64,000 bases of DNA from Vulcanimicrobiota bacterium (GCA_963714015.1 OY970223.1:1856001-1920000); one strand, 5' to 3'. Numbered from the stretch's first letter, positions 45,389 to 64,000 are shown. A program made the numbers and translations. Notes: a model not told the origin generated them from the letters alone.

Positions 45389-45444
45389 GGCATGTCGAAC
45401 GGACCGCTGGTCCGTTTTCTTTACGTTGTGTGGTATAGAGGATC

Positions 45445-45609: not shown

Positions 45610-45638
45610 CCTGTTGCCCTGCCAATGGGCACGTATTT

Positions 45639-45715: not shown

Positions 45716-45734
45716 ATTTCCCAGGAGAAGCGTC

Positions 45735-45983: not shown

Positions 45984-46699
45984 CCGATTATCCGCTGGAC
46001 CACGACCGGGAACACTTCACCCTCACGCACGAGCCGCACGAATCGGAAGCGGAAGCACTCGACGAGGCCGCCGGCACGGTCGACGCTGTGCCCGCAGATT
46101 CCGTAGCCGAGGAGATCGAGCCCGATCAGAGCCCGGATGAATCCCGGCCGCGCGGGGCCAAAGACGACCGCAAGCACTGGTACGTGATTCACACGTACTC
46201 CGGCTACGAAAACAAAGTCAAGGCCAATCTCGAGCGCCGCATCCATTCCATGAACATGCAGGACAAAATCTTCCGCGTGCTCGTGCCGATGGAGGACGAG
46301 GTCGAGTTCAAGGACGGCAAGCGCAAAATAACGCCCAAGAAGGTTTTCCCGGGCTACGTCCTGGTTGAAATGGACATGGACGACCAGTCGTGGTACGTCG
46401 TGCGAAACACGTCAGGCGTCACGGGTTTTGTCGGGAGTCCCGGTGCCGGTGAGAAACCGGTGCCGCTTCAAGACAAAGAAGTGAAGACGATTCTCAAGCA
46501 AATGGGAATCGAGACGCCCAAACTGAAGATCGATTTCAAGAAGGGCGATCGCGTCAAAGTGACGTCCGGACCGTTCTTCGATTTCACGGGAATCGTCGAC
46601 GAGATCGCTCCGGAAAAAGAAAAGGTACGGGCTCTCATCTCGATCTTCGGTCGCGAAACGCCGGTCGAACTCGAGTTCTATCAGATCGAAAAAGTGTAG
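45980..46699 (+). CDS. nusG: Transcription factor NusG with acidic N-terminal extension
   Basis: WYVIHTYSGYENKVK, FPGYVLV, IFGRETPVEL. Confidence 0.98.
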   Translation: MTDYPLDHDREHFTLTHEPHESEAEALDEAAGTVDAVPADSVAEEIEPDQSPDESRPRGAKDDRKHWYVIHTYSGYENKVKANLERRIHSMNMQDKIFRVLVPMEDEVEFKDGKRKITPKKVFPGYVLVEMDMDDQSWYVVRNTSGVTGFVGSPGAGEKPVPLQDKEVKTILKQMGIETPKLKIDFKKGDRVKVTSGPFFDFTGIVDEIAPEKEKVRALISIFGRETPVELEFYQIEKV

Positions 46700-46836
46700 A
46701 ACCGAAAAACTTTCTCGCATTCAGCGACCCCGAGTGTGCGAGATTTCAAGAGGGGCAGTTTGGCCCGCGCGCTTTGCGTGCGGGGGGCGTGAAGCGCGGA
46801 GCGCGCATACGCCTCTTAAAACGAAAAAGGTAGAAA

Positions 46837-47262
46837 ATGGCTAAAAAAATCGTAGGCAAGATCGGCCTGCAGATTCCGGCCGGGAAAGCAACGCCCGCGC
46901 CGCCGATCGGTCCCGCATTGGGCCCGTACAGCTTGAACATCATGGACTTCTGCAAGCAGTACAACGAACGTACTGCCTCGCAAGCCGGGATGATCATTCC
47001 GGTCGAGATCACGGTGTTCGAAGACCGCACCTTCACATTCATCACGAAGACGCCGCCGGCATCGTTTCTGATCAAACAAGCGCTCAAGATTGAGTCCGGA
47101 TCGAAAGAGCCGAACCGTAACAAAGTGGGCAAACTCACGCAAGCGCAAGTCGAAGAGATCGCCAAGGTGAAGATGCCCGACATCAACGCCAACGATATCG
47201 ACGCGGCCAAGAAGATCATCGCCGGAACTGCCCGCTCGATGGGCGTGGAGGTAGAAGCGTAA
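46837..47262 (+). CDS. rplK: 50S ribosomal protein L11
   Basis: [22 protein letters not shown]. Confidence 0.99.
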
Positions 47263-47962
47263 TGGCTCGTTTTCACGGCAAGCGGTTCCGCAATTTGACG
47301 GGTTCGTACGATCGCAAGCAGCTTTCGATGCAGCCGAAGCGGTCTCACTCGTGAAGAAAAATTCAAACGCCAAATTCGACGAGACGGTCGAAGCGCATAT
47401 CCGTCTGGGCGTCGATCCCAAAAAGAGCGATCAAAACGTGCGCGGCACGGTGCTGCTGCCGCACGGCACCGGACGCACTGTACGCGTCATCGCGTTCGCG
47501 AAAGGTGATGCCGCAAAGGCGGCCGAGGCCGCCGGTGCGGACGTAGTGGGCGAAACGGATCTCATCGAAAGAGTCAAGAGCGGATTCACCGACTTCGACG
47601 TCGCGGTTGCAACGCCCGATATGATGGCTGCCGTCGGTAAAGAACTGGGCCGCATCCTCGCGCAAAAGATGCCCAATCCCAAGGCCGGTACGGTTTCGCC
47701 CAACATCGCTGCAGCCATTCGCGACATCAAAGCGGGCAAGGTCGAATATCGCCTCGATAAAACCGGCATCATCCACACGATTGTCGGCAAGGCCAGCTTC
47801 GGCGACGATCAGCTGGCGGAGAACGTTGCGACTCTGCTCGATGCCATCGTCCGTGCCAAGCCGGCTGCCGCGAAGGGAACCTATCTGCGGAGCATCACGC
47901 TGACCAGCACGATGGGGCCAGGGGTCAAAGTCGATCCCAATCGCGTCAAAGCTCACGCGTAG
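47262..47962 (+). CDS. rplA: 50S ribosomal protein L1; frameshift near 47325
   Basis: [10 protein letters not shown]... joins [22 protein letters not shown] after adding one base in a T run. Confidence 0.97.
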
Positions 47963-47975
47963 CAGCTCAGCGCCC

Positions 47976-48794
47976 ATGCCGTTTGTCGACTTTCACACCC
48001 ACACGACGGTTTCGGACGGCGTGTGGCAGCCGCACGAACTCTTCGCGTACGTCCGCGAAAGCGGGATCGAAGCATTCTCGCTGACGGATCACGACACGAT
48101 GGACGGCTATCCGCTTCCGGCGGACATTGCGCCTCGTGCAGTGCCGGGAATGGAAGTCGACACCAAGTGCAACGGCGTCACCGCTCATCTGCTCGTTTAC
48201 GGAATCGATTCGCTGGAGGCGCCGCTGCTGCAGTTTCTGCGGCGGCAGCGCGCCGCGCGACGGGAACGAATGGCCGACATGCTCGAGAAGCTCGATGCTA
48301 AGGGCATTCATTTAGACATGTCGGACGTCGAGGCTCAGGCCGGTAAAGCGGTGAGCTGAGGCCGGCCCCATTTGGCGCGCGCTTTGGTCGCGCGAGGCGT
48401 CGTTAAGGATACGCAGGAGGCGTTCGACAAGTATCTCGCGGACGATCAAGAGGCGTACGTGTCGCTCGATCGGCTCGACTCTTGGCGCGCGATCGAACTG
48501 GCTCACGAGTCCCGGGCCGTCGTCAGCGTCGCCCACCCATGCCGGCTGCGGGAACCGGCGTCACTCGAAGTGTTGCGCTTGGCCGGCGTTGACGGAGTCG
48601 AAGTACTGCATCCCTCCGCAGATACCTCAGCGCAAGCGGAACTGCGCGAATACGCCGCGCGGCACGATCTGCTCGTAACGGGCGGCAGCGATTTCCATGC
48701 ACCGGACAAAGGCTACACGCCCGGCGTACAGCTCGAAGCAAACCATGTCGAGCGGCTATTCGCTGCTGTAGCAGCGGCAAGAATACCCGCTTAA
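47976..48794 (+). CDS. PHP-domain phosphoesterase with in-frame TGA at 48357-48359
   Basis: DFHTHTTVSDG, TDHD, GRPH, AHP, GGSDFH all in one frame. Confidence 0.85.
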
Positions 48795-51005
48795 TACCTT
48801 ACGGCCGAGCGGTCGGCCCCGGGCTTGGCGTCGGCACGATAAACGGCGACGGGTTCGGGCGCAGGCGCCGGAAGAGGCTGCGGCGACGGTGAAGCGCTGG
48901 GCGAGGGCGATGCCTTTGGCAACGGCGATGGTGAGGGTGATGCCTTGGGCGTCGCTGCGGATCGAGGCGTTGGACTCGGCCTCGGTGATGCAGTGGCTTT
49001 GGGAGACGCGCTCGGCGTCGGCTTGACGCTCGGTTTCGGCGACGGCGTTGCTGCGGGCGCCGATTTTGTTTGAACGGCCTTCATCATTGCGGGCCGCGGC
49101 GAGGTCGACGGCGATGCCTTCGGCGAGGGCGATGGTAAGGGTGATGCCTTGGGCGTCGCTCGCGGCCGGGGCGACGGACTCGGCTTCGGCGATGCAGCCG
49201 CTTTGGGCAGCGCGGTAGGCGTCGGCTTGACGTTCGGTTTCGGCGACGGCACTGCTGCAGGCGCCGATTTTGTTTGAACGGCCTTCATCATTGCGGGCCG
49301 CGGCGAGGACGAGGGCGATGCCTTTGGCAAAGGCGATGGTGAGGGTGATGCCTTCGGCGTTGCTGATGGTCGGGGCGACGGGCTCGGCTTGACGCTCGGT
49401 TTCGGCGACGGCATTGCTGCCGGCGCCGATTTTGTTTGAACGGCCTGCCGCGTTACGTTGGGCACTGCGGCGTGCTTAACGAGCGCGGCATTCGTGGCGT
49501 CGGGCTTTGCAGCCGGTGAAGTCGAGGCTGCCGGTTTGGGAGTCGCGACGGTCGTCGGTTTCGGCATTGGTGCCGGAGTCGGAATCGGCTTGGCAGGCAG
49601 AGCCGCCTTAGCCGGCTGACCCGCTGCCGCCCGAGCTGCCCTATGCCGCGGAGGCTTCGTAGGCAGAACCATCGGCGGAATCGCTTCGTACCGCGCGCCG
49701 CAGGCGCCGGGGGCGATGGTGAGCAGATCCGCTGCATAGAGCAGCACGTTTTCCCGATCCACCGACACGGCCGTCTGAGCAGTGAGCACGTCGCTGCGAC
49801 GCGTGTGCACGTCCAGAAACTCGGCTTCGGGTTTCTCTCGAACGTATGCGTACGTCGACTGAGCATTCCGCAGATCTTGCTGCCGTGCAGTGACGTCGGC
49901 GCCGGCTTGGTTGAGCAGGGTTTCCGCGCTCTTGATATTGTCCAAGTCCGCATCGATCGACGCGGCCAGTTCGAGCTTGCGCTGCGTCTGGCGATAGCCC
50001 AATGCTTTTAGTTCCTCGAGATACTGCGCGCGCAGCGCGCGCTCTTCGTCGCGGCCGTGCGTGGGCAGCGCTACGCTGACCCCGACGTCGAGGCGATAGC
50101 CCGAAACTTGCGCGTTGATATCGGTTGTGGATCCGATTTCGGCGATCGTGCTGGCCGTGATGGACGAGCCTTTCACGCGGGCGAGTTCTTCGTTTACCTG
50201 AATGTCTTCCGCAGCGATTCCGGCCATTTGGGGATCGACCGCGTATGCCGATTGCAGCGCGCGGTCGCGATCGGGAGCGCAGCGATCGAAGAACGAGGGT
50301 ATGGCGGGCTGAAATTGTCCCATCTCGTAGCCGACCGCCGAACTGACGTTGGCGAGTTCGGACCGCTGGAGCGCCCGCAGACTAGCGACGTTGAACTGCA
50401 CTTTCTGCACGGACGAATTTATGTCCATGAGATCCGTGCCGGTGAAGAACCCGGTATGAAGCAGCGAACGGCCGGTCGTGATGTCGGACTGAGAGGCGCC
50501 GACGTACGCCTCGCCTACCCGGGCCTGATCGTCATAGCTCCAATACTCCGTGTAAGCCTTTCGAAGCGCCGCTATCTTCGCGCGCTGTAGCTGGTTGAGC
50601 TGAATGACGGCCAGCTGCTCCTGTTCGGCCGCGTCGATAATGGCCAGCTGCTGCTCGATCTTGGAGCCGAGAAGCGGCAGCGAAAGTCCGCCGCCCTGAT
50701 CGTACCGGAGCACGTGGTAGTCGAACGTCCGCGGAACGATGACGGCGGCCGGACCGAAGTCTGTCCGAATATTCGTAGGCAAGACCCGCCCTGTCTTCCG
50801 TTGCGCGGAGCGCCTGGGCCTTGGCTTCGATGGTGCTCTCATCGCCGCGCACGTCCGGCGCGTTCGCAATTTGCGCTTCCAGCGAATTGAGTGTGATGGT
50901 CGCCCGCTGCGCAAAAACGAGCTCCGGTGTCAGGAGCAACAGGCTCGAAAGCACGGCCAAAACTAGGGGCGCTCGAAGTAAACGTCGCCATAGCAGCATT
51001 GGCAC
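48791..51005 (-). CDS. TolC/outer-membrane efflux-like protein with long Pro/Ser/Ala/Lys-rich tail; frameshift near 50765
   Basis: Signal peptide, long coiled-coil helices, two GxSxxLP-type barrel strands; divergent from an HlyD-like gene. Confidence 0.7.
48870..49460 (-). repeat. Three degenerate coding repeats (AVQTKSAPAAxPSPKP...ATPKASPSPSP)
   Basis: GCCGATTTTGTTTGAACGGCCT recurs at ~49059, ~49263 and ~49425. Confidence 0.85.
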
Positions 51006-51129
51006 CGAACTTCTGCCGAGAGACGGTTGCCCCCTGGGGGAGGTTCGCGCGCGTACACCGAAGATATGAGGCGACGGCGCCGTATTTTACGGGCGGTCCT
51101 CCTTACATTCACTCGGTAGAGTCTGACAT

Positions 51130-52201
51130 ATGCGGCTACGTTCTTGGCGCGGCACCACGGTTGTAAGTCCCACACCGCGCCGCTCATTTCCATGGGTTCG
51201 GCTTCTGATTTTCGCGGCGGTGCTCGGCATCGCGGCTTATCTTATTATTCCGAACATCTACTACGTACGCGCGGACGCTCTCGTCCGGGGCGACTTGATA
51301 CCCGTGACGCCGGTCTACCGGGTCCGTGTCGACAAGCTGCTCGTTTCGTGCACGGATCGTGTCCACGCCGGCGAGCCGGTGGCGGTCATCAGCAACTTTT
51401 TGCTCCAGGCGGACTACACGCGGGAGTACCTGCAAGGGCTGCAGCAGTCGCAGATCGCCGGGATCGCGCTGGATCAGAACGTGGCGACGGCGCGTGAGAA
51501 CGCCGAGTCGCTCCATCAGCGCTACCTTCAGGCCGTTGCCGACGACCAGCGGCTGGAAGAGTCGTTCGGATCCTACGACAAGGCCTACAAAGCCGGCGCC
51601 ATTCCGCAGGTCGACTGGGCGGACAAGAAGGCCGAGATCGACGCATCCAAGGCCATGGTCCAAGCATCGCTTGACGCTTGGAAGCGGGCTCAACTGTTCG
51701 TCGCGCAAGTAACGGCTACGCAGACGACCAAGATCTCGTCCGACCAGGCACTCCTCCAGCAGGCGCAAACCGTTGCGAACCGCGTTGGGCAAGAGAAGTC
51801 TGTTCGCACCGGTAAGCGGTGACATCGTCGAGTGCATCGAGCGTCCGCAGAACGTCATTGAAGCGGGAACGCCGCTCTTCAGCATCTTCCAACCCGATCG
51901 CGCGTACATCGTTGCCTATTTTTCGCCGAACGCGGTCGCCAAGGTGCACATCGGACAGTCCGCCGACGTGAACATCGCCGGCCTCCCGAATAGCGTCAAG
52001 GGTCGCGTCGCCTGGATTTACCCCAACCTCGACGCGCTGCCGCCCGAGCTGACCCGGTTCTTCTGGCAGCACGTGCAGTTCTCGCAATACCGGCCGGTCA
52101 AGATCGCCCTCGACCGTCTGCCCGAATCGGACCGGAGCCAGCTCTACTACGACGCGCAGGCACGCGTGAGTATCAGCGTGTCCGGTCAGAAGCTGCAATG
52201 A
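51130..52201 (+). CDS. HlyD/membrane-fusion-like protein; frameshift near 51798
   Basis: N-terminal TM helix, lipoyl halves (DRVHAGEPV / FAPVSG), coiled-coil hairpin. Confidence 0.85.
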
Positions 52202-52830
52202 ACGGCGACAGCAATCAACGACTGCTCCAGGTTCTCGCGCTGGTTCCCAAGGATTCCCATCTGGATCCCCACTGGGAGCCGCGCGCGCCGGCCGGAGCCA
52301 CCTATGGGGACGCCGTTGCCGGCTTAGATCCGGACCAGGTCGCCCAGGACCTCGAGACCCTCGCTGACCGCGGCTATGCGGAACGGATATTCGTCGAACG
52401 CCTAATGATCTGTCCGTCCTGCTCGAGTCATGCGGTCAACGTTCACGAGTCGTGCGTCACTTGCAACTCGTCCAACCTCGAGTCGATCACGTCGTACTTC
52501 CATTTCCGCTGCGGTTTCATCGGACCGGAAAAGGCGTTTACGAAAGAACCCGCCGGCCTGCGCTGCCCCAAATGCAAGAAGTACCTGGTCGACGTGGGAA
52601 CCGATCACGATAGCCCTGGGGTCTTTTTCGAGTGCAAGAATTGCGCTGCGATGTTCCAGCAGCCGAATATGGGCGTGCGGTGCCTGGGATGCGGCGCGCG
52701 ATTCACCGGCCTGGCCCTGCAGGATCTCAAACACCGCGACGTCTACGCGTACCGGCTGCTGCTTCGCGGCCAAAATGCGCTCGCAAACGGAGCGCTGGAG
52801 ACCAGCGACCTGAATGCTCGATCTCTTTAA
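52198..52830 (+). CDS. TackOD1-like multi-zinc-ribbon protein
   Basis: CPSC, CVTC, HFRC, CPKC, CKNC, CLGC pattern with VGTDHD. Confidence 0.8.
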   Translation: MNGDSNQRLLQVLALVPKDSHLDPHWEPRAPAGATYGDAVAGLDPDQVAQDLETLADRGYAERIFVERLMICPSCSSHAVNVHESCVTCNSSNLESITSYFHFRCGFIGPEKAFTKEPAGLRCPKCKKYLVDVGTDHDSPGVFFECKNCAAMFQQPNMGVRCLGCGARFTGLALQDLKHRDVYAYRLLLRGQNALANGALETSDLNARSL

Positions 52831-54114
52831 TCGGTTACTGACAAGCCTCGACAACTTCTACATTTGGAACGCGTTCCTCGCCGTTCCGCACCTGCTGTAC
52901 AGCACGAGTCTGATCTTCTGGCTCGTCGTGTTCCTGGTTGTGCGCTTCGAAACTCCTAACTTCGCGTTGTACGTCGCCTACTTGGTGAATCGTAAGGCAT
53001 TCGAGCCGCCGCCCCTGCGGCGTTTCGCGAACAATCAGCCGCTGATCTCGTTTCTTATCGCCGGACGCAACCCGGGCGCGAGCATCATCTCGTGCATCGA
53101 ATCGATTCTGGCGAGCAACTACAAAAACATCGAGATCATCTTTGCCGACGACAAGTCCACCGACAATAGCGTCGAGCTGGCGCGCAAATTCGAGTCTTCC
53201 GGCAAAGTCCGCGTCGTCGCGAATGCCAACCACAGCGGAAAAGCCGCCGGGCTCAATCTGGCGCTGATGTTCGCTCGCGGAGAGTTCGTTTTCATCCTCG
53301 ACGCCGACAGCTGGTGTTTCCCGACACCGTCGACAATATGCTGCCGTATTTCGAGGACCCGAAGGTCGGCGGCGTCTCACCGAGCATTTTCTGCCGCAAT
53401 CCGTTCGATAGTTTCTGGACGCGGTGCCAGCAGATCGAATACGTCATGGCGTACGTCATGAACCAGCTCTGGCGCGACAAACTCGGAGTCATCGCCACCC
53501 TCTCCGGAATGGGGACGCTCTTCCGGATGGAGGCCATCAAGCACATCGGCGGCTGGGACATGGGATTGGGCGACGACACGGACAGTACGATCCGGTTGCG
53601 CAAAACGCATTGGACGCTGCACACTTCGCTGCGCGGGCATATCCTGACCGAATGTCCCAAGACGCTCAGCCATCTCTGGAGCCAGCGTTCGAGGTGGACC
53701 CGCAACATGGTCAAACAGCGGATGCGTAAGCACCGCGATTTGGGGACGTTCCGCTACGGGTTCAGGAACGGCCTGATGTTCTGGGACATGACGTTCAATC
53801 GCATCGTCCACCCGTATCTGCTGGTGGGGCTGCCGCTGCTCGCCTTCTTTCTGAAGACTCCCGACATTCCGGTCATAGCGGGCGGACTGTACGCCTTTAC
53901 GACCATCATTTTTACGCTCGAATTGCTGATGGCCCGCGATATGACGCGGCGCGATCCCTCGATGCAGAATTTTCTGCTGATGCCAATCTACGTTCTCTAT
54001 CGCATTCCGCTGCTGACCGTTCGGCTCGTTCAGATTACCCGCGAGCTGCTGATGATCAAGCCATGGCATCCCTACGTTCCACGCCGGGTGTGGGACGCGA
54101 TCCCGTTCCACTAG
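52814..54114 (+). CDS. Processive GT2 polysaccharide synthase; frameshift near 53313
   Basis: DDKSTD, GKAAGLN, DAD, GDD, QRSRW motifs with N- and C-terminal TM helices. Confidence 0.9.
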
Positions 54115-54151
54115 AGTAGTTTCAGGACTCGCCGGCCCCGGTCACCCCGCC

Positions 54152-55465
54152 CTAAGGCGAGGTGATCGAGAACAGCGCGTTGCCGTTGCTGCGAATGTTC
54201 AGGACGCCGTTTGGAGCATACGACCGGATATCCGTGGCGAACGCCTGGTACGTCGGTGACGTTGAAATCGAGTCGTACTGGAACGACTGATTGTTGTCTT
54301 CGTACCATGAGATTGCGTGAAGGTGCGGATACGGCGTGTTCGGCGAGGTCAGTACCGAGAACATCGCGTCGATCCACGCAGCCTTCATGGCACCGCCGTC
54401 GCCATATTCGTTTGAGGCGGTTTCCGTGACCATAATCGGCTTGTTTTCGGTAGCTTTGATCGCGTAGTTGTACGCGCCGCCCATCATGAACGTGAACGCG
54501 TACCACCTGCGTCCATTGTTGTAGCTGCCCATGTTGTAGCCGTCCAGCGCAACCCAGTCAACGTAGGAGTCGCCGGGGTATGCTGCCGGAGGCTCGTTCC
54601 ACGATTCGACCGGGCTCGTGCCGCTGTTGAAGCACCAGATGAACTTCACGTTCGAGGCGCCTACTTGACGGAAGATCGTGACGACATGCTGCCAAGCCGC
54701 GATAAAGTTGGCGTCTGCAACCGGCCCCGCGCCGTTCTGCGGTAGTCCCCATGCATACCGCGTCGTGTTGAACTCGTGGAAGAGCCGGATGAACACGGGC
54801 TGTCCGAACGCCTTCAGCGTCTGTGCGGAAGCGGTGATGTACGAGTCATAATCGCCGGCCGCGATCCCGGCAAGCGTAACCGTCGAATGAGCCGACTGTG
54901 CCTGCCACGTGATGTCGGGGATCGTATTTTGAGCCTCCATCGCCGCCAGCGCGTTCTGAGAGATGACGTTCGTCATTGCCTCGTCCCACGTCGAGTACAC
55001 CGTGCCGATCGCTATCCCGTGCCGCATGACGGAGGGAAAGTTTGTGCACGTAAGTGCAGCCCACAGGCCGCAATCGGCGCCAAGGAAAATGCCGGACGTG
55101 GAGTTACTTGGGTCCGGTAATATCGGCAAACCGTTGGGGTTGAATGTCGGCACCGGGCTAGGCGTGGGGCTCGGCGCATTCGTCGGCCAGGGTGTGCCGG
55201 TGGGCCAGGGTGTGCCGGTCGGCCAGGGGGTGCCGGTGGGCCGGGGGGTGCTCGTCGGCCACGGGCTGCCGGTGGGCCGCCAGTTCGGTGTAGAAGTCGG
55301 GGAGGGGCTCGGCGTGGTGCTCGGACGCGCCGATGGGAAACTTTGGCCAAGGCCGGCCGTCGATGCGCCTCCGGTGCTGGGGATACCGGCTCCGCCGCCG
55401 CCGCATGCGGTCAGAATCGTTGCGGCCAGGGCTAGGGTCAATACACTTCTCGTCTGTCTGCTCAC
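54152..55465 (-). CDS. GH26-like glycoside hydrolase lipoprotein with Pro/Thr linker
   Basis: LTAC lipobox; [31 protein letters not shown]. Confidence 0.88.
55182..55277 (-). repeat. 18-bp tandem coding repeat (PTGTPW, ~5 copies)
   Basis: GT(C/G)GGCCAGGGTGTGCCG units on the + strand. Confidence 0.9.
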
Positions 55466-55600
55466 AAACGAGTAATCGGCGTCTTAATGTTTTTGGTGTA
55501 GTCGCTTTACAAATTCTTAAGGGTTGGTACTCCTCAATACCAAACGAGAAGCGCCCCGCGAATCCGCGAGGCGCTTGGAACGGTTGCCTAATCCCGCGGC

Positions 55601-56329
55601 TTAGACGCCGACGCAAACCTCGTATTTCGAACACTCTTGCTTGAAGATTTCCTTTGCCTTGGCGTAGAGCTCGACGTCTTGCGCTCGATACTTGTTGACC
55701 AGTCTGCGCACCTCGTCGCTTACTTCGAAGGCGCCGCCAACGCGCTTGGTTACGTTGGCAAAACGCGGCGGTCCAAGGTCGTGCCGGAACCGCGCCTTGA
55801 AGAGTTCCCAGCTCTTCTCGTATTCCTCGTAGAGGCCGACGAAGGCGAATTCTTCGATGGGAACGCTGCCCACGAACTGCGATTGGTGATCGTGGTAGAA
55901 CAGCCACTTGAAGTGTTCTTCGAGCGTGGGGCGCAGCTCTTGCCAGTAACGGACCTCAGCGTGAACCTCCTTGTTCGCATCGCTCTTGCGATCGGTCAGC
56001 GCGCTTTGCCAGCGCCAGTGCGAAATCGACTGCTGCGCCGGTTCGCGCACGAACGTGACGTATTCGGCTTGCGGGAAGAGACCCACGTACTTGTCTGCGC
56101 AAAAATGTCCGTGTATGACATCGTAATTCTCGAGCAGCTCTTCGCGCCGAGCGCGCATTGCAGCCATCCGCAGGTCGCGGCGGCGGTTGGCGAACGGCTC
56201 GTCGAAACCGACCCAGTCCCCGTAGTCGCGGAAGACGCGCTCGACGTCGTATGCATCCATCAAGGCCTCACGAAACGAATTTCCGGCGGTCTTGGGGATG
56301 TGGATTGAAAGTAACATAGGCTCGTTCAA
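55601..56329 (-). CDS. PAPS-dependent sulfotransferase (Sulfotransfer_2-like)
   Basis: HIPKTAGNS 5'-PSB loop, GHF, TFVREP...S 3'-PB motif, D..LY. Confidence 0.88.
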   Translation of the reverse strand: MNEPMLLSIHIPKTAGNSFREALMDAYDVERVFRDYGDWVGFDEPFANRRRDLRMAAMRARREELLENYDVIHGHFCADKYVGLFPQAEYVTFVREPAQQSISHWRWQSALTDRKSDANKEVHAEVRYWQELRPTLEEHFKWLFYHDHQSQFVGSVPIEEFAFVGLYEEYEKSWELFKARFRHDLGPPRFANVTKRVGGAFEVSDEVRRLVNKYRAQDVELYAKAKEIFKQECSKYEVCVGV

Positions 56330-56347
56330 TGCTCTCTTTCGGTGTGA

Positions 56348-57373
56348 TTATGGTACGGGCTGCGCCCCGGCATTCGTCGCTTCCGCGGCGCGGAGAGCGC
56401 CGGTCAAAGCTGTTCGGATGATTGCGTCGATCTCCAGGTAGCGCGGCTGCCACCCCAGCGTGCGATTTGCAAGCGATGCATCGGCAACGAGAACCGGCGG
56501 ATCGCCTTCGCGGCGAGGTCCGGCGCCGTGCGGGACCCGGCGGGCGGCGACGCGTTCGACGCTGCTCAAAAGTTCTTTGACGGACGTGCCGCGACCGGTT
56601 CCCAGATTGAGCGTGAGAACGCCGGCGTTGTTCTCGAGGTGCTTGAGCGCGAGCATGTGCGCTTCGGCCAAATCGTCGACGTGGATGTAGTCGCGAATGC
56701 AGGTTCCGTCGGGCGTGTTGAAGTCATCGCCGAAAATCGTAAACGGTTTTCCGCCCAATGCGGCGCGAATAGCCAGCGGAATAGCGTGGGTTTCGGGATC
56801 GTGCAGCTCGTAAAGATCGTGCGTCTCGCTGCTTCCGGCGGCGTTGAAGTAGCGCAGCAGCGCGAAACTCATTCCGTAGGCGGCGGCAAAGTCGCGCATC
56901 ACGTGCTCGATCATCAGTTTGGAACGGCCGTAAGGATTGATAGGCCGTTCGTCCATGGTTTCGTCGAGGTGCTTGCCCTCGGGCGGTATGCCGTACGTCG
57001 CGCACGTTGAAGAGAACACGACGCGCCGCACGCCGCTATCGCGAAGCGCGGTGAGCAGCCGGCACGTTTGAACCACGTTGTTTTCGTAATACAGACCCGG
57101 ATCGACGACCGATTCTCCGACTGCGGCGAACGCCGCAAAATGGACGACGCCGGTTACGTTGTGGCGGCGCACCGTATCGCGGATCGCTTCGACGTCTCCG
57201 ACGTCGGCGCGAACCAGTTTGCCGGTGGGAACGAACGTCCCGTTAGAACGGCTGAGGTTGTCCACGACGACGTACGGAACGCCGCGATCCTGAAGAAGGG
57301 CGGCGAAGTGCGACCCGATGTAGCCGGCCCCTCCCGTGACTAGGAGCGAGCCGCCCAGGTACGCGTTTTCCAT
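56348..57373 (-). CDS. galE: UDP-glucose 4-epimerase
   Basis: TGGAGYIGSH, YGRSK, LRYFNAAG, DGTCIRDYIHV. Confidence 0.96.
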   Translation of the reverse strand: MENAYLGGSLLVTGGAGYIGSHFAALLQDRGVPYVVVDNLSRSNGTFVPTGKLVRADVGDVEAIRDTVRRHNVTGVVHFAAFAAVGESVVDPGLYYENNVVQTCRLLTALRDSGVRRVVFSSTCATYGIPPEGKHLDETMDERPINPYGRSKLMIEHVMRDFAAAYGMSFALLRYFNAAGSSETHDLYELHDPETHAIPLAIRAALGGKPFTIFGDDFNTPDGTCIRDYIHVDDLAEAHMLALKHLENNAGVLTLNLGTGRGTSVKELLSSVERVAARRVPHGAGPRREGDPPVLVADASLANRTLGWQPRYLEIDAIIRTALTGALRAAEATNAGAQPVP

Positions 57374-57379
57374 GTTCGC

Positions 57380-59041
57380 TTAAGCCCCCGAGGAGAGCCC
57401 CGAAACGATCCGCGCGAGCACCTCGTGGGTTGCGGCGTCCATTCCAAAGAACTCCAAATGATACTGGTACCAGCCGTTGTCGGCGATGCGGTGGTCTACC
57501 ACCCGCGCCTGGAGCACGACTTCGTCCGTGACGCTCGCTCCATGCACGTGCGGAGCCTTGAACCGGACTTCAACACGCGAGCCGATGGGCAGCATGTCAT
57601 CGGCGGCCATGAGCAATCCGCCGGCCGAGATGTTTTTCATACGAGCGGAGCGGCGCGCCGAGATCGACGTCTGATACGTCATGGCCAAGTCGGTGCCGAT
57701 GCGCACGCTGGAGCGCGCGTCGGTTTCGGCGGAATCCCATGAAACCGAACTAATGAGCAGCGCACCGCTAGTGCGGTGGCTCGAGGGATCGACGACGATC
57801 ATCGAACCCGCGGTACGGTTCGTCTGGTAAAGGTCGACCGGAAGCGCTTCCTGCGTTTCGAAGGTGACGTAACCGATCTCGTTTACTTCGAGCGCGTGCG
57901 CAGCAGTGCGGTCGAGCGTGTGAATGTCCAGGCAGCTCTCGATGCTGACGATGCGTCCTTGAATCCAGCGCGAGCCGTGACGGATCCAGTACTTGCGGCC
58001 AATCTGCGCGGGTTCGGTGTCCATCCACGCAAGTGCAGCGGAGAAACGCTGCGTGCTGCGTACAGTGTGCGGCGTCGATATCCAGTTTCCGCGCGCCACG
58101 TCCACGTGGCGATCGAGGACGAGTCCGGCCGATTCGCCCGCTTGAACGATTTCCACGCGGTCGCCGGCGCGCCGCACTTCGACTACCGTTGCAGATTCGT
58201 TGCTCGGGAATATCTGCACGCTATCGCCGCGCTGCACGCTGCCGCCGCAGACCCGTCCCCACACGACGCGGGTATGGTTGCTGCCCGTAGCGGGATCGCG
58301 CGAGACGTATTGCACCGGCATGAGGAAATTGCCGTCTTTGGTGCCGTCCTCTTCGACCGGAAGACATTCGAGCAATTCGAGAAGCGTCGGCCCGGTATAC
58401 CAGTCCAATCCGCCGCGCGTCGTTACGTTGTCGCCGTTCAGCGCGGAGATCGGCACGATTGCCCGCACCGGAATTCCGGCGGCGCCGCTGAGCTGCAGCA
58501 GCGCTTCGCAGACGGCCTCAAAGCCTTCACGCTGGTTGGGAATAGCGTCGATCTTATTGACGGCGAACACGATGCTCGGGATGCGCAAGAGGTGCGCGAG
58601 AAGCGTATGGCGGCGCGTTTGAGCGAGCAGCGTAACGGGACGTTTGCTCACATCGAGTTTCGTGATGTCGACCAGCACCACGGCCGCGTCGCTTCCGGTG
58701 GCCGCCGTAACCATGTTCCGCGTGTACTGTTCGTGCCCCGGCGCGTCCGCGATGATGAACTTGCGCTGGCGCGTCGAAAAATAACGGTACGCGACGTCGA
58801 TGGTGATGCCTTGCTCGCGCTCGGCCTCCAATCCGTCGGTCAGCAGCGCGAGATCGATCTCCTGACCGTTACTGCTCAAACGGCCAAGCTGATCCGCTAG
58901 AATCGCTTGACATTCGTACAACAATCGGCCCGTGAGAGTGCTCTTCCCGTCGTCCACGCTCCCGGCCATCAGAAACCGCAACGCGCGGTCTTCGCCCGGA
59001 CGGTTGTTGCCGGCGGGGACAGCGTTCATCATAACCACCAT
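57380..59041 (-). CDS. cysN: Sulfate adenylyltransferase large subunit fused to a C-terminal PilZ domain
   Basis: GSVDDGKST, EREQGITID, DAPGHEQY, NKID; last ~110 aa carry RSSVR...NISAGG. Confidence 0.93.
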   Translation of the reverse strand: MVVMMNAVPAGNNRPGEDRALRFLMAGSVDDGKSTLTGRLLYECQAILADQLGRLSSNGQEIDLALLTDGLEAEREQGITIDVAYRYFSTRQRKFIIADAPGHEQYTRNMVTAATGSDAAVVLVDITKLDVSKRPVTLLAQTRRHTLLAHLLRIPSIVFAVNKIDAIPNQREGFEAVCEALLQLSGAAGIPVRAIVPISALNGDNVTTRGGLDWYTGPTLLELLECLPVEEDGTKDGNFLMPVQYVSRDPATGSNHTRVVWGRVCGGSVQRGDSVQIFPSNESATVVEVRRAGDRVEIVQAGESAGLVLDRHVDVARGNWISTPHTVRSTQRFSAALAWMDTEPAQIGRKYWIRHGSRWIQGRIVSIESCLDIHTLDRTAAHALEVNEIGYVTFETQEALPVDLYQTNRTAGSMIVVDPSSHRTSGALLISSVSWDSAETDARSSVRIGTDLAMTYQTSISARRSARMKNISAGGLLMAADDMLPIGSRVEVRFKAPHVHGASVTDEVVLQARVVDHRIADNGWYQYHLEFFGMDAATHEVLARIVSGLSSGA

Positions 59042-59044
59042 TGA

Positions 59045-60003
59045 TTAGAAATAGCCTTCGAGTTTGCGCCGCTCCATTGAAGCTTCGGAGGTGCTGTCGT
59101 CCATACGCGTAGCGCCGCGTTCGCTGACAGTCACCGAAACGGTCTCGGCGATGATTTCCTGCGGAGTCGAAGCGAAGCTCTCGACACGGGACAGGTGCAC
59201 GTCATGTCACCAACGGTGCGGAATCTCACGGAGACGCTTTCAGGCCGTTCGAGCGGCTGAAGCGGTGTAATATCCGTGATCGGCACGAGAAGATCGCGCC
59301 GGCGCACGACCGGACGCATGTGCGAGTAGTAGAGAGAGGGCAGCGCAATTTCTTCGCGGGCGATATAGAGCCACACGTCCAACTCGGTCCAGTTCGAGAT
59401 CGGGAACGCGCGCATATGTTCGCCCGGGCGAACGCGCGTGTTGAAGAGCGTCCACAACTCGGGGCGCTGCTCTTTGGGCCGCCATTGTCCGAAACGATCG
59501 CGATGCGAGAAGATGCGCTCTTTTGCGCGAGCCTTTTCTTCGTCGCGGCGCGCGCCGCCGATCAGCACGTCGAAGCGATGCTCCTCGATCGTTTCGAGCA
59601 GCGTCACTGACTGATGGCTGTTGCGGCTTTCGAGCGGATGCGAAAGGCGAACCGTTCCGCGCTCGATGGAATCCTGAAGGCTGCCCACGATGAGGCGTTC
59701 TCCGGTTTCCGCGACGCACCAGTCGCGGAATTCGATTACTTCCGGGAAATTATGACCCGTGTCAATGTGCACGAGCGGGAACGGCAGCGTTCCGCGATAG
59801 GTACCGTCGGCATCGCGGTGCTTGAACGCCTTTTCCGCAAGGCGAAGCACGACGCATGAATCTTTGCCGCCGGAGAACAACAGTGCGGGCCGTTCGAAAG
59901 CACCCGCGACTTCGCGCAGGATGAAAATCGCCTCTTCCTCGAGCCAATCGAGATGGCGAACGTTAAGCGGCGAAGTCTGCTCAACAGTAAGAGCTGCGTC
60001 CAT
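59045..60003 (-). CDS. cysD: Sulfate adenylyltransferase small subunit; frameshift near 59180
   Basis: FSGGKDS, HIDTGHNF, GGARRDEEKARAKER; other frame ends SERGATRMDD...MERRKLEGYF. Confidence 0.96.
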
Positions 60004-60218
60004 CGTAAATTGTCGCGTCCTAACGAATGAAAGGAGATGCGGTCATCTGCGCCTTTTCCGGCATACACTCCTGCCCGATGCCCTCGTTACAAGTAGTCCA
60101 TTCGGCACGTTCGCTGTTTAGACTTTACGCTCCTAATATTAGGCGTTTGCACCGTTGCGTCGGCATATATGGCTTTTACATCTTCGGCATTGCCTGCGCA
60201 ACAGATTAGAATCGCCGC

Positions 60219-60255
60219 TATCTCGGCTTTCCTTATATCTCGGCTTTCCTTATAT
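60219..60255. repeat. Perfect 17-bp tandem duplication in the divergent promoter region
   Basis: TATCTCGGCTTTCCTTA x2. Confidence 0.9.
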
Positions 60256-60346
60256 ATGGGAATAGCTCCCAATCTCGTCATGAAGTCAAGACCGTGCAAC
60301 GGCAATAGTGAAAAAATACTAGTGACAAGCTAGGCTTTACGCTTGA

Positions 60347-60375
60347 TTGACACTTCACGGCGCGATTGATATCGT
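60347..60375 (+). promoter_or_regulatory. Sigma70-type promoter for tauE-cysC
   Basis: TTGACA-17 nt-TATCGT with extended TG. Confidence 0.6.
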
Positions 60376-60460
60376 AGCCGCACGAAGCCCCAAACGGGTT
60401 TTGCCGCTCGTATCTGCGGCGTTTACGGCAGATGCGGGCCACGGTTTCCGTAGGGAGCAC

Positions 60461-61240
60461 ATGAACGCAGAGCTCATTGCCATAGGATTTGTGGTAGGGA
60501 TCCTCGTCGGCCTCACCGGTGTGGGTGGAGGCAGCATTATGACGCCGCTCCTGATTGCGCTGAACATTCCGCCGCTGGCCGCGGTCGGAACCGACCTGTT
60601 GTACAGCGCCCCCACGAAGGTCTTTGGAGCCTATCTGCACCATCGTCAGCGAACCGTGAATTGGCGGCTGGTGGGTGCCTTGACGACCGGCGGCGTACCG
60701 GCCGCCATCGTGGGCGCACTAACGCTGGTATGGTTGCGCGGCCATGTCGCCCTGAGCGTGCTGCAGAGTTTCACGAAGCACGCGGTGGGCGCGGCGCTCG
60801 TCATTTCCGCGGTCATCATCATGGTGACGCCCTGGCTGCTCAAGGGTCAGGATCGGACCTCCGGCAACATCGAGTGGAATCGGGCCAGGCGTTGGAAGAC
60901 CATCACGATCGGTGCCGCGGTCGGCCTCATCGTGACGGTGACCTCCATCGGCAGCGGTTCGGTCACGCTTCCGATGCTCGCTCTGGTCTTGCCCGCAGCG
61001 GGCCTACAAACATTGGTAGGAACGGATATCGCTTTTGCCGCAATTCTCATACCAACCGCATTTCTGAGCCGGTGGTCGATGGGCGGCGGCGTCAACATTC
61101 CGCTCGCGGTCAACCTGATCGTCGGGTCCATGCCCGGGGTCTTCATCGGTACGAAGCTGTGCGGATTTCTCCAGCAGCGTTACCTGCGTCCCGCACTCGC
61201 TTTGACGCTCGTGGTCGTGGGCGCGCGAATGGTCGTCTAA
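60461..61240 (+). CDS. TauE/SafE (TSUP) sulfur-compound transporter
   Basis: GLTGVGGGSIMTP, AVGTDL, SIGSGS, LVGTD; GGAG RBS. Confidence 0.92.
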   Translation: MNAELIAIGFVVGILVGLTGVGGGSIMTPLLIALNIPPLAAVGTDLLYSAPTKVFGAYLHHRQRTVNWRLVGALTTGGVPAAIVGALTLVWLRGHVALSVLQSFTKHAVGAALVISAVIIMVTPWLLKGQDRTSGNIEWNRARRWKTITIGAAVGLIVTVTSIGSGSVTLPMLALVLPAAGLQTLVGTDIAFAAILIPTAFLSRWSMGGGVNIPLAVNLIVGSMPGVFIGTKLCGFLQQRYLRPALALTLVVVGARMVV

Positions 61241-61260
61241 GAACAGGAAGTTCACAGCAC

Positions 61261-61809
61261 TTGAAACGAGGATTCACCGTTTGGCTCACCGGCATGTCCG
61301 GCGCGGGCAAGAGTTCGATTTCCGAAAGACTCGCTGCAGAACTCGCCGCCCGCGGTGAGAGCGTCGAAGTGCTCGACGGCGACGAGGTCCGTACGCACCT
61401 TTCAAAGGGCCTGGGTTTCAGTCGCGAGGACCGCGACGTCAACATCGGCCGCATCGCGTTCGTCGCCTCGCTGCTGGTCAAGCACGGCGCCGCCGTCATT
61501 ACCGCCGCAATCTCGCCCTATGCTCAGGCCCGTGAAGCGGCGCGGAAGCAGATTGGCGACTTTCTCGAGGTCTACGTCCGCTGCTCGATTGAGGAACTCG
61601 CGCGTCGCGACGTCAAAGGCCTTTACAAGAAGGCAATCGCCGGCGAGATCGGTCAGTTCACCGGAATCTCCGATGAGTATGAGGCACCGCAAAATCCGAA
61701 CGTGACGGTCGATACGGAGTTGGAAACGATCGAAGAGAGCGTCTCCAAGATCATCGCGGCGCTGGAGGAGCGCGGGTACTTGCGGGCGGGCGAGCAAGCC
61801 CGCACCTAA
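61261..61809 (+). CDS. cysC: Adenylyl-sulfate kinase
   Basis: WLTGMSGAGKS, LDGDEVR, RDVKGLY, FTGISDEYEAP. Confidence 0.97.
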   Translation: MKRGFTVWLTGMSGAGKSSISERLAAELAARGESVEVLDGDEVRTHLSKGLGFSREDRDVNIGRIAFVASLLVKHGAAVITAAISPYAQAREAARKQIGDFLEVYVRCSIEELARRDVKGLYKKAIAGEIGQFTGISDEYEAPQNPNVTVDTELETIEESVSKIIAALEERGYLRAGEQART

Positions 61810-61881
61810 CGTCCCGCGGCTATCGTCATCCGGTCCCCATCGGTAATGCCGTGGCCGTTACCATCGACGTTTACGTGAAGT

Positions 61882-61915
61882 AAGAAAGGCCTCGCCGGGG
61901 CGAGGCCTTTCTTTT
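61882..61915. terminator. Bidirectional terminator
   Basis: AAGAAAGGCCTCGCC-GG-GGCGAGGCCTTTCTT. Confidence 0.85.
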
Positions 61916-61931
61916 AGGCAGCAGCGTTACG

Positions 61932-62912
61932 CTACTGTTTGCACGCGCCGAGTTTGTTGCTCCACAACGGCTGCGTCGGGAACGTTCCGGTGGAGAACTT
62001 CGTGTTTTGCAGATCCTGCCAAGCGCACGCGTCGCCAATCTCTCCGAGCGGTCCGTTCCAGCCGCTAAAGGGCTGCGGATCGGTCTCGGTCTCGCCCTGT
62101 TCGTGTCCTTCGACGATCGACACGCCGTCATCGGTTCCGGGACTGTTCACCGAACCGGCGCCGCACGCTTGACCGGGATCGGGCATGTACGGCAAATTGG
62201 TGAACGCGATCGGGTTGCCGTTCTCGGTCTCATTGCTGTGCCACGCGCAGTATTCCGTACCGAAACCTGCCGGCAGGATGCCGTGCGGCATCGCAACGAC
62301 GTAGCTGGCGCTGTTCGTGTAGTCGCCGAAGTGTTTGGCAGCGCGCGCGGCTTCTGCGCCGATTTGCCCGTCGGTCGGCGACTGCGGCGGTTGATTCGCA
62401 CTATCCACATAAGCTCCGGCAAGGGTGGTAGTGTTCTTGATGAACGTCTTGACAGGTCCGTAGTACTGCGTGAGGGTGCCGGTCCATTGACTCCCATTCA
62501 GTCCCTTGGTAAACGTCCTGAGCACTTTTTGGACTCCGTCGGGATCGCCGCTCTTGCTGCTCCACGCCTTGCCCCAGAACACGATGTACATCTTTGGGCT
62601 GGCCTGAATCGGGCCGCCGCCGTAATTCAGATTGTCCGATTTCGACGGCGCGATGAGGCCCAGCGTTTGTGCGCGCGCGTAATCCTGACGCGTCGGAAAA
62701 TACGACGCCGTCATGCCGTTGTCGAGCACTTTGGTGAAGACGCTTTGCGTCGTACGCGCCGACGGAACGATGCGCCCGCCGCCTACCGACGACGGAAGAT
62801 TTTGCGTTTGCGGAATTGCGGCGCTGTGTTGGCCGCAAGCTGCCAGCATCGACGCAGCCGCCGCGAGCGCGGCAAATTTGGTCACTCTATGCACGAAGAA
62901 AAACCCCTTCAA
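61932..62912 (-). CDS. Lipoprotein with PHI-1/EXORDIUM-like domain
   Basis: LAAC lipobox; YGGGP, YCAWH, HEQGETETDP, EIGDAC. Confidence 0.7.
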   Translation of the reverse strand: MKGFFFVHRVTKFAALAAAASMLAACGQHSAAIPQTQNLPSSVGGGRIVPSARTTQSVFTKVLDNGMTASYFPTRQDYARAQTLGLIAPSKSDNLNYGGGPIQASPKMYIVFWGKAWSSKSGDPDGVQKVLRTFTKGLNGSQWTGTLTQYYGPVKTFIKNTTTLAGAYVDSANQPPQSPTDGQIGAEAARAAKHFGDYTNSASYVVAMPHGILPAGFGTEYCAWHSNETENGNPIAFTNLPYMPDPGQACGAGSVNSPGTDDGVSIVEGHEQGETETDPQPFSGWNGPLGEIGDACAWQDLQNTKFSTGTFPTQPLWSNKLGACKQ

Positions 62913-62988
62913 ACTAACGGTTTCAGAGAAAAGTATCTCTGACGTTTCTCTGCGTTCGAGGGTGTCCTTCGAGTGAGGACTAGTATCT

Positions 62989-63207
62989 TTACACTATAGC
63001 CTTTCGGACACGCTTTGCGTTCGCGTGAGAGTGATGCAAACTCTGCGTTACTGTGCCGTTACCGAGTCCGGGTGCGGGTGCCGGAGCGACGGGAGCTTGT
63101 GCGGCACTGTGCGGAAGAGGTTGAACCGCACCACCGCCGGCGCATGCCGCCAGCATCGCGGACATCGTAGCCGCTGCGGCGATTTTGGAAATTCTCCGCA
63201 CGAACAT
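62989..63207 (-). CDS. Small lipoprotein (possibly a truncated paralog N-terminus)
   Basis: Signal ...SAMLAAC resembles that of 61932-62912. Confidence 0.55.
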   Translation of the reverse strand: MFVRRISKIAAAATMSAMLAACAGGGAVQPLPHSAAQAPVAPAPAPGLGNGTVTQSLHHSHANAKRVRKAIV

Positions 63208-63297
63208 CCCCCATTTGAAAAGAGCGCAGCATTTTCTTATCGAGCGTTACGCTTGATGCCGCGCGCTCCCTCGCACTTCTGTTAGTCCATATGTACT

Positions 63298-63331
63298 AAA
63301 AAAGAGGCCCCGCCGCGAAGGCGAGGCCTTT
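63298..63331 (-). terminator. Intrinsic terminator
   Basis: GC hairpin with GCGAA loop and an A run on the + strand. Confidence 0.7.
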
Positions 63332-63354
63332 CGTACTCACGCTTTGATTCGTCG

Positions 63355-64000
63355 TTACTGAACGCAGCCGTTATTCTTGTTGCTCCAGAGCGGCTGAGTC
63401 GGGTAAGTGCCGTTGGTGAACGCCGTGTTTTGAAGGTTTTCCCACGCGCACTTGTCGCCAATCTCTTGGCCGCTGGAATCGCACCAGCCGCTGCAGGGGC
63501 GGGGATCGGTTTCAGTCTCGGCTTGCTCGTGTCCGCCGACGATCGTGACGCCGTCGTTCGTTCCGGGGCTGTTGACTGAGCCTTGACCGCAGCTGAAATC
63601 CGGCGTCGGGCATGTACGGCAGATCGGTGTACTGAATCGTGCCGCCCGAGCCCGATTCGTCGTCGTGCCATGCGCACCACTGGTTGCCGAACGCGGTCGG
63701 ATCGTGTCCGTGCGGCAGCGCGACGACATAGCTGGCGCTCACCGAATAATTACGGAAATGCGAAGCGCCGCGCTTGGCTTCATTGCCTACAGCCGTATCC
63801 GAAGGATGCGTCGGCGGCGTGCTTCCCGTGTCGACCCACGTGCTTTGCAGAACGGTGTCGTCATTGATGTACGTTCCGCTCGGGCCGTAATACTGCGTCA
63901 TCGAGCTCGGCCAGCTCGCGCCGTTCCAACCGGCGTAGAATTGATCGAGCAGCGATTTGACGCCGTCCGGATCGCCGGAGGAACCGTTCCACGAGCTTCC
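63355..64000 (-). CDS. Second PHI-1/EXORDIUM-like protein; 5' end outside the window, frameshift near 63595
   Basis: WCAWH, LPYMPD, HEQAETETDP, EIGDKCAW, PTQPLWSN shared with the paralog. Confidence 0.75.

Follow-up and report, generated by a model that had tools for sequence, protein, structure and literature searches.

The stretch of DNA analysed here, a window of 64,000 nucleotides from the genome of a Vulcanimicrobiota soil bacterium (GCA_963714015.1 OY970223.1:1856001-1920000; coordinates are those of the whole window), carries a cluster of genes (Table 1) that joins a membrane-embedded, processive family 2 glycosyltransferase (GT2), a candidate export route, a predicted sulfotransferase, and enzymes for PAPS (3'-phosphoadenosine 5'-phosphosulfate), which donates the sulfate. 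The host genome (G000 below; G001 is a relative from the same genus, other G numbers are further relatives, and L numbers are public loci) is assembled as a single contig with 89.6% marker-gene completeness. Judging from the nearest public loci of its TackOD1 protein, the host would belong to the phylum Eremiobacterota (WPS-2, Vulcanimicrobiota), family Baltobacteraceae.

Table 1. Genes of the cluster, with coordinates in the window and the features that identify them
Product	Coordinates	Strand	Features
PHP-family phosphoesterase (TrpH/Cv1693-like), candidate pAp phosphatase	47904..48794	+	In-frame TGA 48357-48359; PHP Pfam match in N-terminal half
TolC-like outer-membrane factor	51005..48791	-	Signal peptide; frameshift near 50757; C-terminal repeats; Pfam OEP E 0.013
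HlyD-family membrane-fusion protein	51130..52201	+	N-terminal membrane anchor; frameshift ~51795-51799; HlyD_3 6.4e-12 (C-terminal piece)
TackOD1 multi-zinc-ribbon protein	52198..52830	+	210 aa, cytoplasmic; PF18551 9.7e-40
GT2, membrane-embedded, processive	52814..54114	+	~433 aa; frameshift 53308-53323; QRSRW
GH26-family lipoprotein	54152..55465	-	Pro/Thr-rich linker; lipobox LTAC; PF02156 2.1e-9
Sulfotransferase, Sulfotransfer_2-like, cytoplasmic, PAPS-dependent (predicted)	55601..56329	-	Probable start 56317; motifs, profile and fold
UDP-glucose 4-epimerase GalE	56348..57373	-	TIGR01179 1.7e-107, 359 bits (cut-off 262)
CysN-PilZ fusion	57380..59041	-	TIGR02034 416 bits; C-terminal PilZ ~57380-57733
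CysD (ATP sulfurylase small subunit)	59048..60003	-	C-terminal frameshift 59173-59185; open frame as assembled 59131-60003
TauE/SafE (TSUP) anion permease, candidate sulfate importer	60347..61240	+	PF01925 1.2e-43
CysC (APS kinase)	~61237..61809	+	PF01583 1.7e-58; NF002059 254 bits (cut-off 244)

On the plus strand HlyD and TackOD1 overlap by 4 nt and TackOD1 and GT2 by 17 nt, with the TolC-like gene divergent from the three of them on the minus strand. Five minus-strand genes in a row, 6-135 nt apart, converge on GT2 (cysD, cysN-PilZ, galE, sulfotransferase, GH26), and divergent from cysD are TauE and cysC, which overlap by 4 nt. A reading made earlier from the sequence alone (the sequence-only reading) had listed genes at 48791..61809, and all those that it named are there, but the TolC-like, HlyD-like, GT2 and cysD genes are frameshifted as assembled, the sulfotransferase has no Pfam or NCBIfam match (its identity comes from motifs, profile and fold), and the abutting PHP gene had been overlooked. 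The same reading saw no PAPS reductase or sulfite reductase gene in the cluster, which is borne out: the sole PF01507 match is CysD itself (NF009214, 8.7e-113).

Each of the two GT2 pieces finds a family match (Glycos_transf_2, 6.3e-23; Glyco_trans_2_3, 4.3e-16), the motifs DD, DxD, GDDTD and QRxRW are invariant in 21 orthologues, and residues 25-385 of the G001 orthologue align to BcsA residues 80-469 (E 1e-9); this is an inner-membrane processive GT2 with the D, DxD, (T/G)ED-like and QxxRW motifs of a synthase. Its length is ~433-447 aa, and the NodC and PgaC models match it weakly. Both pieces of HlyD match NCBIfam adaptor families. The TolC-like protein matches Pfam OEP weakly in the window, with better scores for its orthologues (E 2e-7 in G024, 6e-7 in L046, 1e-18 in L058). 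Its C-terminus holds ~270 residues of Pro/Ser/Ala/Lys-rich tandem repeats (48902-49390; 204-nt period, 2.4 copies, 87% matches), which are unusual for an outer-membrane factor, and the G001 orthologue aligns to the repeat region too. The GH26 lipoprotein (PF02156, 37.6 bits against a cut-off of 20.2; L-T-A-C lipobox) has the features of a periplasmic hydrolase; G001 encodes an orthologue with 64% identity and five paralogues, so that its cluster has six such lipoproteins, and that of L046 has four. No tetratricopeptide repeat (TPR) scaffold or porin family was found among the cluster open reading frames (ORFs) scanned; the HlyD adaptor and the OEP/TolC-like protein are there instead. The likeness to the cellulose, alginate and poly-N-acetylglucosamine synthase systems drawn by the sequence-only reading holds, then, for the processive GT2 and the periplasmic hydrolase, but not for export, which differs from the TPR-porin type. 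By analogy with BgsBA-TolC and Xcs (see below), export would take the "tripartite" route of a membrane-fusion protein (MFP) plus TolC, with the TolC-like gene as a putative requirement.

In TackOD1, the small protein encoded between HlyD and GT2, several Cys pairs are invariant and an HFRCG motif is present. The one paper found on TackOD1, PMC5847659, terms its function obscure. A complex prediction for the G001 GT2 and TackOD1 gave a score of 0.73, against 0.00 for the best of three controls; in calibration, 116 of 157 solved complexes scored this high, as did 2 of 215 mismatched pairs, counts that hold only roughly because our own alignments were used. At least 97% of contacts are shared between runs, with partner pLDDT (predicted local distance difference test) of at least 81, and the predicted interface joins the invariant HFRCG region of TackOD1 to conserved GT2 residues 134-165 and 256-260. 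Since we know of no solved complex of the TackOD1-GT2 kind, the score is unlikely to come from a memorised structure, and the modelling supports the binding of TackOD1 to GT2. Longer TackOD1 proteins (330-350 aa, in L014, L015, L016, L046, L058 and L065) carry a C-terminal tail in which 5 of 6 segments show sub-threshold GGDEF/PelD_GGDEF matches; those of the window, G001 and G024 are without this GGDEF-like tail. No PilZ or GGDEF-like domain was found on either the GT2 or the 210-aa TackOD1 of the window, the PilZ domain of the cluster sitting on CysN. A PAS-GGDEF cyclase is encoded near the Sulfuricella locus.

The gene at 55601..56329 is predicted, from its motifs and modelled fold, to encode a PAPS-dependent enzyme of the heparan-sulfate O-sulfotransferase type. 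An N-terminal IHxPKxAGNSF loop and an RDPxQQ segment are found in 11 orthologues, and the orthologue profile aligns to the heparan sulfate (HS) 6-O-sulfotransferase 5t03 in three collinear segments (E 4.8e-4). The AlphaFold model (mean pLDDT 88.5; predicted TM score, pTM, 0.87) gives 28 Foldseek matches at E<=0.001, all of them sulfotransferases and headed by HS 2-O- and 6-O-sulfotransferases (4ndz, 5t03; TMq 0.54-0.57), and in the nearest ESM Atlas clusters 22-80% of members have PF03567. Profile and model together place the PAPS-binding loops (the 5'-phosphosulfate loop with its Lys, and the 3'-phosphate segment) in a sulfotransferase fold. The protein begins at the first strand of that fold and therefore lacks a signal peptide, making it cytoplasmic.

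CysD, CysN and APS (adenosine 5'-phosphosulfate) kinase are encoded together with this sulfotransferase, as in NodPQ/NodH-type systems. The sequence-only reading had advised a search for another cysDN or cysH set elsewhere in the genome; a second cysD-cysNC-TauE locus is found, and neither cysH nor sulfite reductase occurs in G000. Genome-wide, G000 has no match to the NIR_SIR sulfite reductase family, and its only two PF01507 matches are both CysD, with the CysH model below cut-off on both. Without cysH and sulfite reductase there is no assimilatory outlet, so that PAPS in this organism can feed only sulfotransferases. G001, the same-genus relative, encodes cysK, cysH, sulfite reductase and sirohaem synthesis in an island (C28 ~28.9-33.6 kb; L039 8961-13638) whose flanks are adjacent in G000, where ~20 kb is absent; NIR_SIR is found in 10 of 40 relatives searched, a count that includes the unpublished genome G010. 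The second PAPS locus of G000 (2.817-2.820 Mb; L005, G000:C1:2806000-2825999, genes at ~L005 7879-16173) consists of cysD, a cysN-cysC fusion (split in the assembly) and TauE. Its neighbours are genes for a Sulfotransfer_3 protein, a DegT aminotransferase, WbqC, a nucleotidyltransferase, an acetyltransferase, methyltransferases and sugar-nucleotide enzymes, and it lies a few kb from fliS; it could represent a pathway for a sulfated, possibly flagellin-linked, sugar. TauE adjoins PAPS genes in this second locus and also in L046, L047 and L050.

The PHP gene appears to complete the set. Its intact orthologue in G001 matches PDB entries 3e0f (2.6e-26), 7ug9 (RNase AM, 1.9e-25) and 2yb1 (1.3e-22; residues 11-253), the last of which we take to be Cv1693. 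According to PMC8268124, Cv1693 hydrolyses 3'-phosphoadenosine 5'-phosphate (pAp). In G001 the PHP gene is flanked by cysD and TauE; in G024 it adjoins the sulfotransferase gene, and in L046 and L047 it has PAPS genes as neighbours. By homology and position it likely encodes a pAp phosphatase co-conserved with the sulfation genes, the substrate being a prediction; such an enzyme fits the cluster because pAp is the by-product of sulfotransfer.

CysN carries a PilZ domain at its C-terminus (PF07238, 40.7 bits against a cut-off of 22.5). PilZ domains bind cyclic di-GMP (c-di-GMP) through the motifs RxxxR and (D/N)xSxxG. Both are present here as RSSVR and NISAGG, ~21 residues apart, and the CysN GTPase motifs are intact as well; the fusion protein is thus predicted to bind c-di-GMP. 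Such fusions are rare. A word-based search finds 2 proteins. Of 401 Eremiobacterota genomes, just G000, G001, G002, the unpublished G223 and, weakly, G311 have open frames of at least 540 aa around a PilZ match; the PilZ tally of the same search also counts the unpublished G254 and G392. Of 1.84 billion cluster representatives 52 match PilZ, and only one of these (547 aa) has it C-terminally on a protein the size of CysN. A search of the literature for CysN with PilZ gave, judged by titles and the starts of abstracts, no paper on such a fusion. Two side observations concern the same domain and its ligand. Tandem pairs of proteins of 220-300 aa, whose C-terminal PilZ is similar to that of CysN, are encoded in several genera of the family (for example G216:C1:2028889-2029891 and G158:C1:234733-235693), and a 7TMR-DISM sensor-GGDEF diguanylate cyclase fusion, a possible source of c-di-GMP, lies ~10 kb upstream of the cluster at 37010-38617 (-).

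The sequence-only reading expected these genes to be co-conserved in relatives, and they are: the HlyD-TackOD1-GT2(-TolC) module is kept across 38 loci from several phyla, joined by sulfation genes in Eremiobacterota-type loci. These loci come from an alignment-based search of public genomes with TackOD1, where a single-protein query found no relative; among the 40 closest genomes (G000 excluded) five have TackOD1 homologues. HlyD is adjacent in 30 of the 38 loci, GT2 in 27 and a similar TolC in 15; the sulfotransferase and GH26 occur in 7 each, TauE in 4, PAPS genes (within 10 kb) in 3 and PHP in 2, counts to be read with the knowledge that several loci are from the same genomes as the relatives, and so not independent, and that 6 of the 38 are contigs of less than 3 kb. 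In G001 one contig ends with TolC, HlyD, TackOD1 and GT2, and a second starts with the GH26 orthologue, followed by GH26 paralogues, the sulfotransferase (73% identity), galE, cysN-PilZ, cysD, PHP, TauE and cysC. One contig of G002 carries GH26, TolC, the sulfotransferase with HlyD as its neighbour, TackOD1 and GT2, and another carries cysN-PilZ and cysD. G024 has TauE, HlyD, TackOD1 and GT2 on one contig and GH26, TolC, the sulfotransferase, PHP, a Sat-type ATP sulfurylase and cysC on another, while L046, L047 and L050 each hold PAPS genes, TauE, sulfotransferase, core, GH26 and TolC within 20 kb. Where the Sat-type enzyme and CysC take the place of CysDN beside the same sulfotransferase and PHP (G024 and L047), one function has been taken over by non-orthologous genes. 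Loci with the sulfotransferase are of the Eremiobacterota type, apart from one in a metagenome-assembled genome (MAG) labelled Acidiferrales; MAGs in which the core has no sulfation genes with it bear the labels Gammaproteobacteria (Sulfuricella, Gallionellaceae, Sulfuricellaceae), Alphaproteobacteria, Planctomycetota and Nitrospinota.

Other genes recur at or near these loci. Large PQQ-like beta-propeller proteins are encoded in or near several clusters (L027 5715-7664, L029 4228-6000, L046 18581-20602, L050 17244-20540), those of L046 and L050 with weak, below-cut-off matches to the lambda-carrageenase propeller family, and L042 has a sulfatase gene (3-1826) ~8 kb upstream of its core.

The broken frames of the window call for care in reading the host sequence. 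TolC, HlyD and GT2 are each a single open frame in G001, HlyD is uninterrupted in relatives (375-384 aa), and G001 has a sense codon where the PHP gene of G000 has its TGA. In cysD the last ~46 residues lie in another frame: residues 334-379 of the G001 orthologue map to 59048-59185, the G001 stop-to-stop frame continues through them, and the NF009214 match of the G000 protein covers only model positions 14-274 of 317. For a background rate, G001 ORFs from ~250 kb were compared with G000, a gene being called split if it had matches in two frames. In G000, 22 distinct frame junctions were found among 140 orthologous ORFs (~16%), while the reverse control, G000 ORFs searched in G001, gave 1 of 139; the genome background is ~1 frameshift per 11 kb; the split genes include flhA (~90% identity), TonB-dependent receptors, an M16 peptidase, a GH20 gene of the window (12245-14132) and the second cysN. 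Because about a sixth of genes are split genome-wide, conserved ones included, and the reverse control gave 1 in 139, the frameshifts in the cluster are most likely sequencing or assembly errors (uncorrected indels). Gene calls in G000, with that proportion of orthologous ORFs split, need a frameshift-aware reading. Public reads (three runs from one soil study) gave only short, low-depth contigs, none of them usable at the frameshift sites of TolC or GT2. One read contig fits 51800-52064, and its preceding 12 letters equal window 51787-51798, so that the T at 51799 is missing from it, which would put HlyD back in frame; this contig is unlike the window beyond 52064 and possibly comes from a relative, which makes it a weak hint only. 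Programmed frameshifting and selenocysteine were set aside as causes of the lesions, the relatives showing plain open frames and a sense codon.

It would appear rather probable, from gene content and its conservation, that the locus encodes a secreted, sulfated glycan system built on a "tripartite" synthase, both the polymer and its sulfation being predicted. That the locus makes, sulfates and exports a glycan was the inference of the sequence-only reading as well, and co-conservation together with the missing assimilatory outlet lends it computational support, the product being a prediction. The processive GT2 would polymerise a UDP-sugar at the inner membrane, with GalE, going by its family, supplying the 4-epimer. 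Cytoplasmic TackOD1 may dock onto the catalytic domain of GT2 and act there as a subunit or a regulator, as the predicted complex suggests. By analogy with BgsBA-TolC and Xcs, the HlyD-type adaptor and TolC-like channel would take the chain through the periplasm and the outer membrane, and the GH26 lipoprotein, again by analogy, may trim or release it. In the cytoplasm, sulfate imported by the TauE-type permease would be converted by CysD/CysN to APS and by CysC to PAPS; the sulfotransferase, whose family is clearer than its acceptor and timing, would sulfate the sugar before or during translocation, and the PHP phosphatase, from its homology, would remove the inhibitory by-product pAp. Through PilZ on CysN, with its intact binding motifs, c-di-GMP might control the activation of sulfate along with the production of matrix.

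Several observations weigh against this scheme. The sulfotransferase has no Pfam or NCBIfam match at all, and Sulfotransfer_2 (PF03567) in particular finds it neither at E<=0.01 nor at E<=10; the GH26 match covers only part of its model (positions 137-249 of 311); and galE is found in 0 of 38 loci at the thresholds used. The weakest step is the access of a cytoplasmic sulfotransferase to a translocating chain: to our knowledge, synthase-dependent polymers are modified in the periplasm, whereas the sulfotransferase here is cytoplasmic. With the sulfotransferase in 7 of 38 loci and PAPS genes in 3 of 38, most core loci are without sulfation genes, and sulfation is therefore an add-on. The two halves of the cluster might even be uncoupled, the core making an unsulfated glycan and the sulfotransferase and PAPS genes modifying lipopolysaccharide, lipid, protein or a small molecule; this would explain the 31 of 38 loci where the core has no sulfation gene whatever, and the second PAPS set of G000 does serve a different sulfotransferase near flagellar genes. 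We nevertheless think such an uncoupling improbable, given that the same sulfotransferase family lies directly beside HlyD or GT2 in 7 loci of varied gene order, that in the window its gene forms an operon-like string with GH26 and galE, and that its nearest folds are carbohydrate O-sulfotransferases.

A product of another kind, a short sulfated oligosaccharide or glycolipid signal resembling a Nod factor, would suit the small GT2 with its weak NodC and PgaC matches, and the cytoplasmic location of both sulfotransferase and PAPS is what a soluble or lipid-linked oligomer would need; NodPQ/NodH are a precedent, with HlyD/TolC serving here for export. But the several GH26 lipoprotein paralogues per cluster suit a polymer, the GT2 aligns with BcsA through the membrane region, and no acyltransferase or deacetylase gene was seen among the cluster ORFs scanned, all of which make a Nod-like signal quite improbable. 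It is also conceivable that the cluster is a decaying pseudogene array in this strain, the TolC, HlyD, GT2 and cysD frameshifts and the PHP stop codon being real. Its four frameshifts and one nonsense codon in ~14 kb are somewhat above the background, a further point against a working system, and in PHP a base is substituted, with no indel. This excess is marginal, however, and was spotted only post hoc, and the splitting of 16% of orthologous ORFs genome-wide (flhA among them), with almost none in the reverse control, fits assembly error; we regard decay as unlikely.

The cluster most likely unites glycan synthesis, sulfation from its own PAPS supply and export, and bacteria with this combination have so far not been described; literature searches for Eremiobacterota with sulfotransferase or exopolysaccharide showed, by titles and abstract starts among the papers listed, nothing on such a system. 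Two elements appear new: TackOD1 as a predicted synthase subunit, and the CysN-PilZ fusion with its predicted ligand. More tentatively, this may be the first synthase-type (GT2-MFP-TolC) machine for a sulfated bacterial exopolysaccharide, set on a widespread, uncharacterised HlyD-TackOD1-GT2-TolC module, with TackOD1 as a novel subunit of the synthase in the cytoplasm, polymerisation and sulfation coupled on the cytoplasmic side, and c-di-GMP controlling the sulfate donor through CysN-PilZ, a new effector class acting on sulfur metabolism; we would give that full claim somewhat less than an even chance. Sulfated polysaccharides described from bacteria are few and industrially interesting, and the characterised routes are Wzx/Wzy or ABC (PMC13125312). 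If the proposed system is real, its compact synthase-type cluster, which would supply PAPS and remove pAp by itself, offers a new plan for the making of sulfated polymers. It would also offer a testable role for TackOD1, point to c-di-GMP control of sulfate activation (on which no paper was found), and give insight into the matrix of the Eremiobacterota, a phylum that is common in soil but hardly represented in culture.

Some further features of the window were looked at and left outside the cluster. The ORF at 60278-60643 (-) has no family match, nor does the longer frame 60278-60718; it is treated as non-coding because it lies inside the divergent cysD/TauE promoter gap. The lipoprotein gene at 61932-62912 was excluded, having no informative match and no homologue in the clusters of relatives. 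An Rfam scan of 44000-64000 found tRNAs only and no riboswitch, and a promoter and terminator scan, with fewer sites than in shuffles, was uninformative. Elsewhere in the window an integrase (rve) fragment of 153 aa (20759-21217, -) lies in a stretch of lower G+C (0.53 at 18-20 kb), and a frame of >1079 aa, open at the window start (1-3240, +), has PMT-family protein O-mannosyltransferase domains in its C-terminal half.

Dedicated supplies of PAPS have precedents. In rhizobia, NodPQ feed NodH (with NodC) to make a sulfated oligosaccharide signal, and in Xanthomonas RaxPQ and RaxST, with RaxABC, reportedly combine a dedicated PAPS copy, peptide sulfation and a dedicated exporter. The cluster described here resembles both in having a dedicated CysD/CysN/CysC copy for a pathway sulfotransferase and an exporter of its own; the Nod and Rax systems, on the other hand, lack a synthase of the MFP-TolC-GT2 kind, and neither a PilZ-bearing CysN nor a PHP phosphatase belongs to them. 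For the core, the described GT2-MFP-TolC systems are BgsBA-TolC (the mixed-linkage beta-glucan of Sinorhizobium meliloti) and XcsABC (Thermosynechococcus cellulose), both under c-di-GMP control according to PMC13438883. They share with the window a processive GT2 gene beside one for an HlyD-type adaptor, and they work with a TolC-type channel, as is proposed here; the likeness is one of architecture. The window GT2 is shorter and has no c-di-GMP-binding tail. The window adds TackOD1, a TolC-like gene of its own, GH26 lipoproteins and the full sulfation module. Synechan (Xss) and other cyanobacterial sulfated exopolysaccharides, in the account given by PMC13125312, use cluster-encoded, PAPS-dependent sulfotransferases on Wzx/Wzy or ABC pathways; in the window, by contrast, the backbone would be made by a synthase with MFP/TolC export, and the supply of PAPS is inside the cluster. 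With PelD (and its degenerate GGDEF), BcsA and Alg44 the cluster has in common a c-di-GMP receptor domain tied to the machinery of a matrix polysaccharide, but here TackOD1 has no GGDEF-like tail, and the PilZ domain belongs to the GTPase that activates sulfate, not to the synthase.

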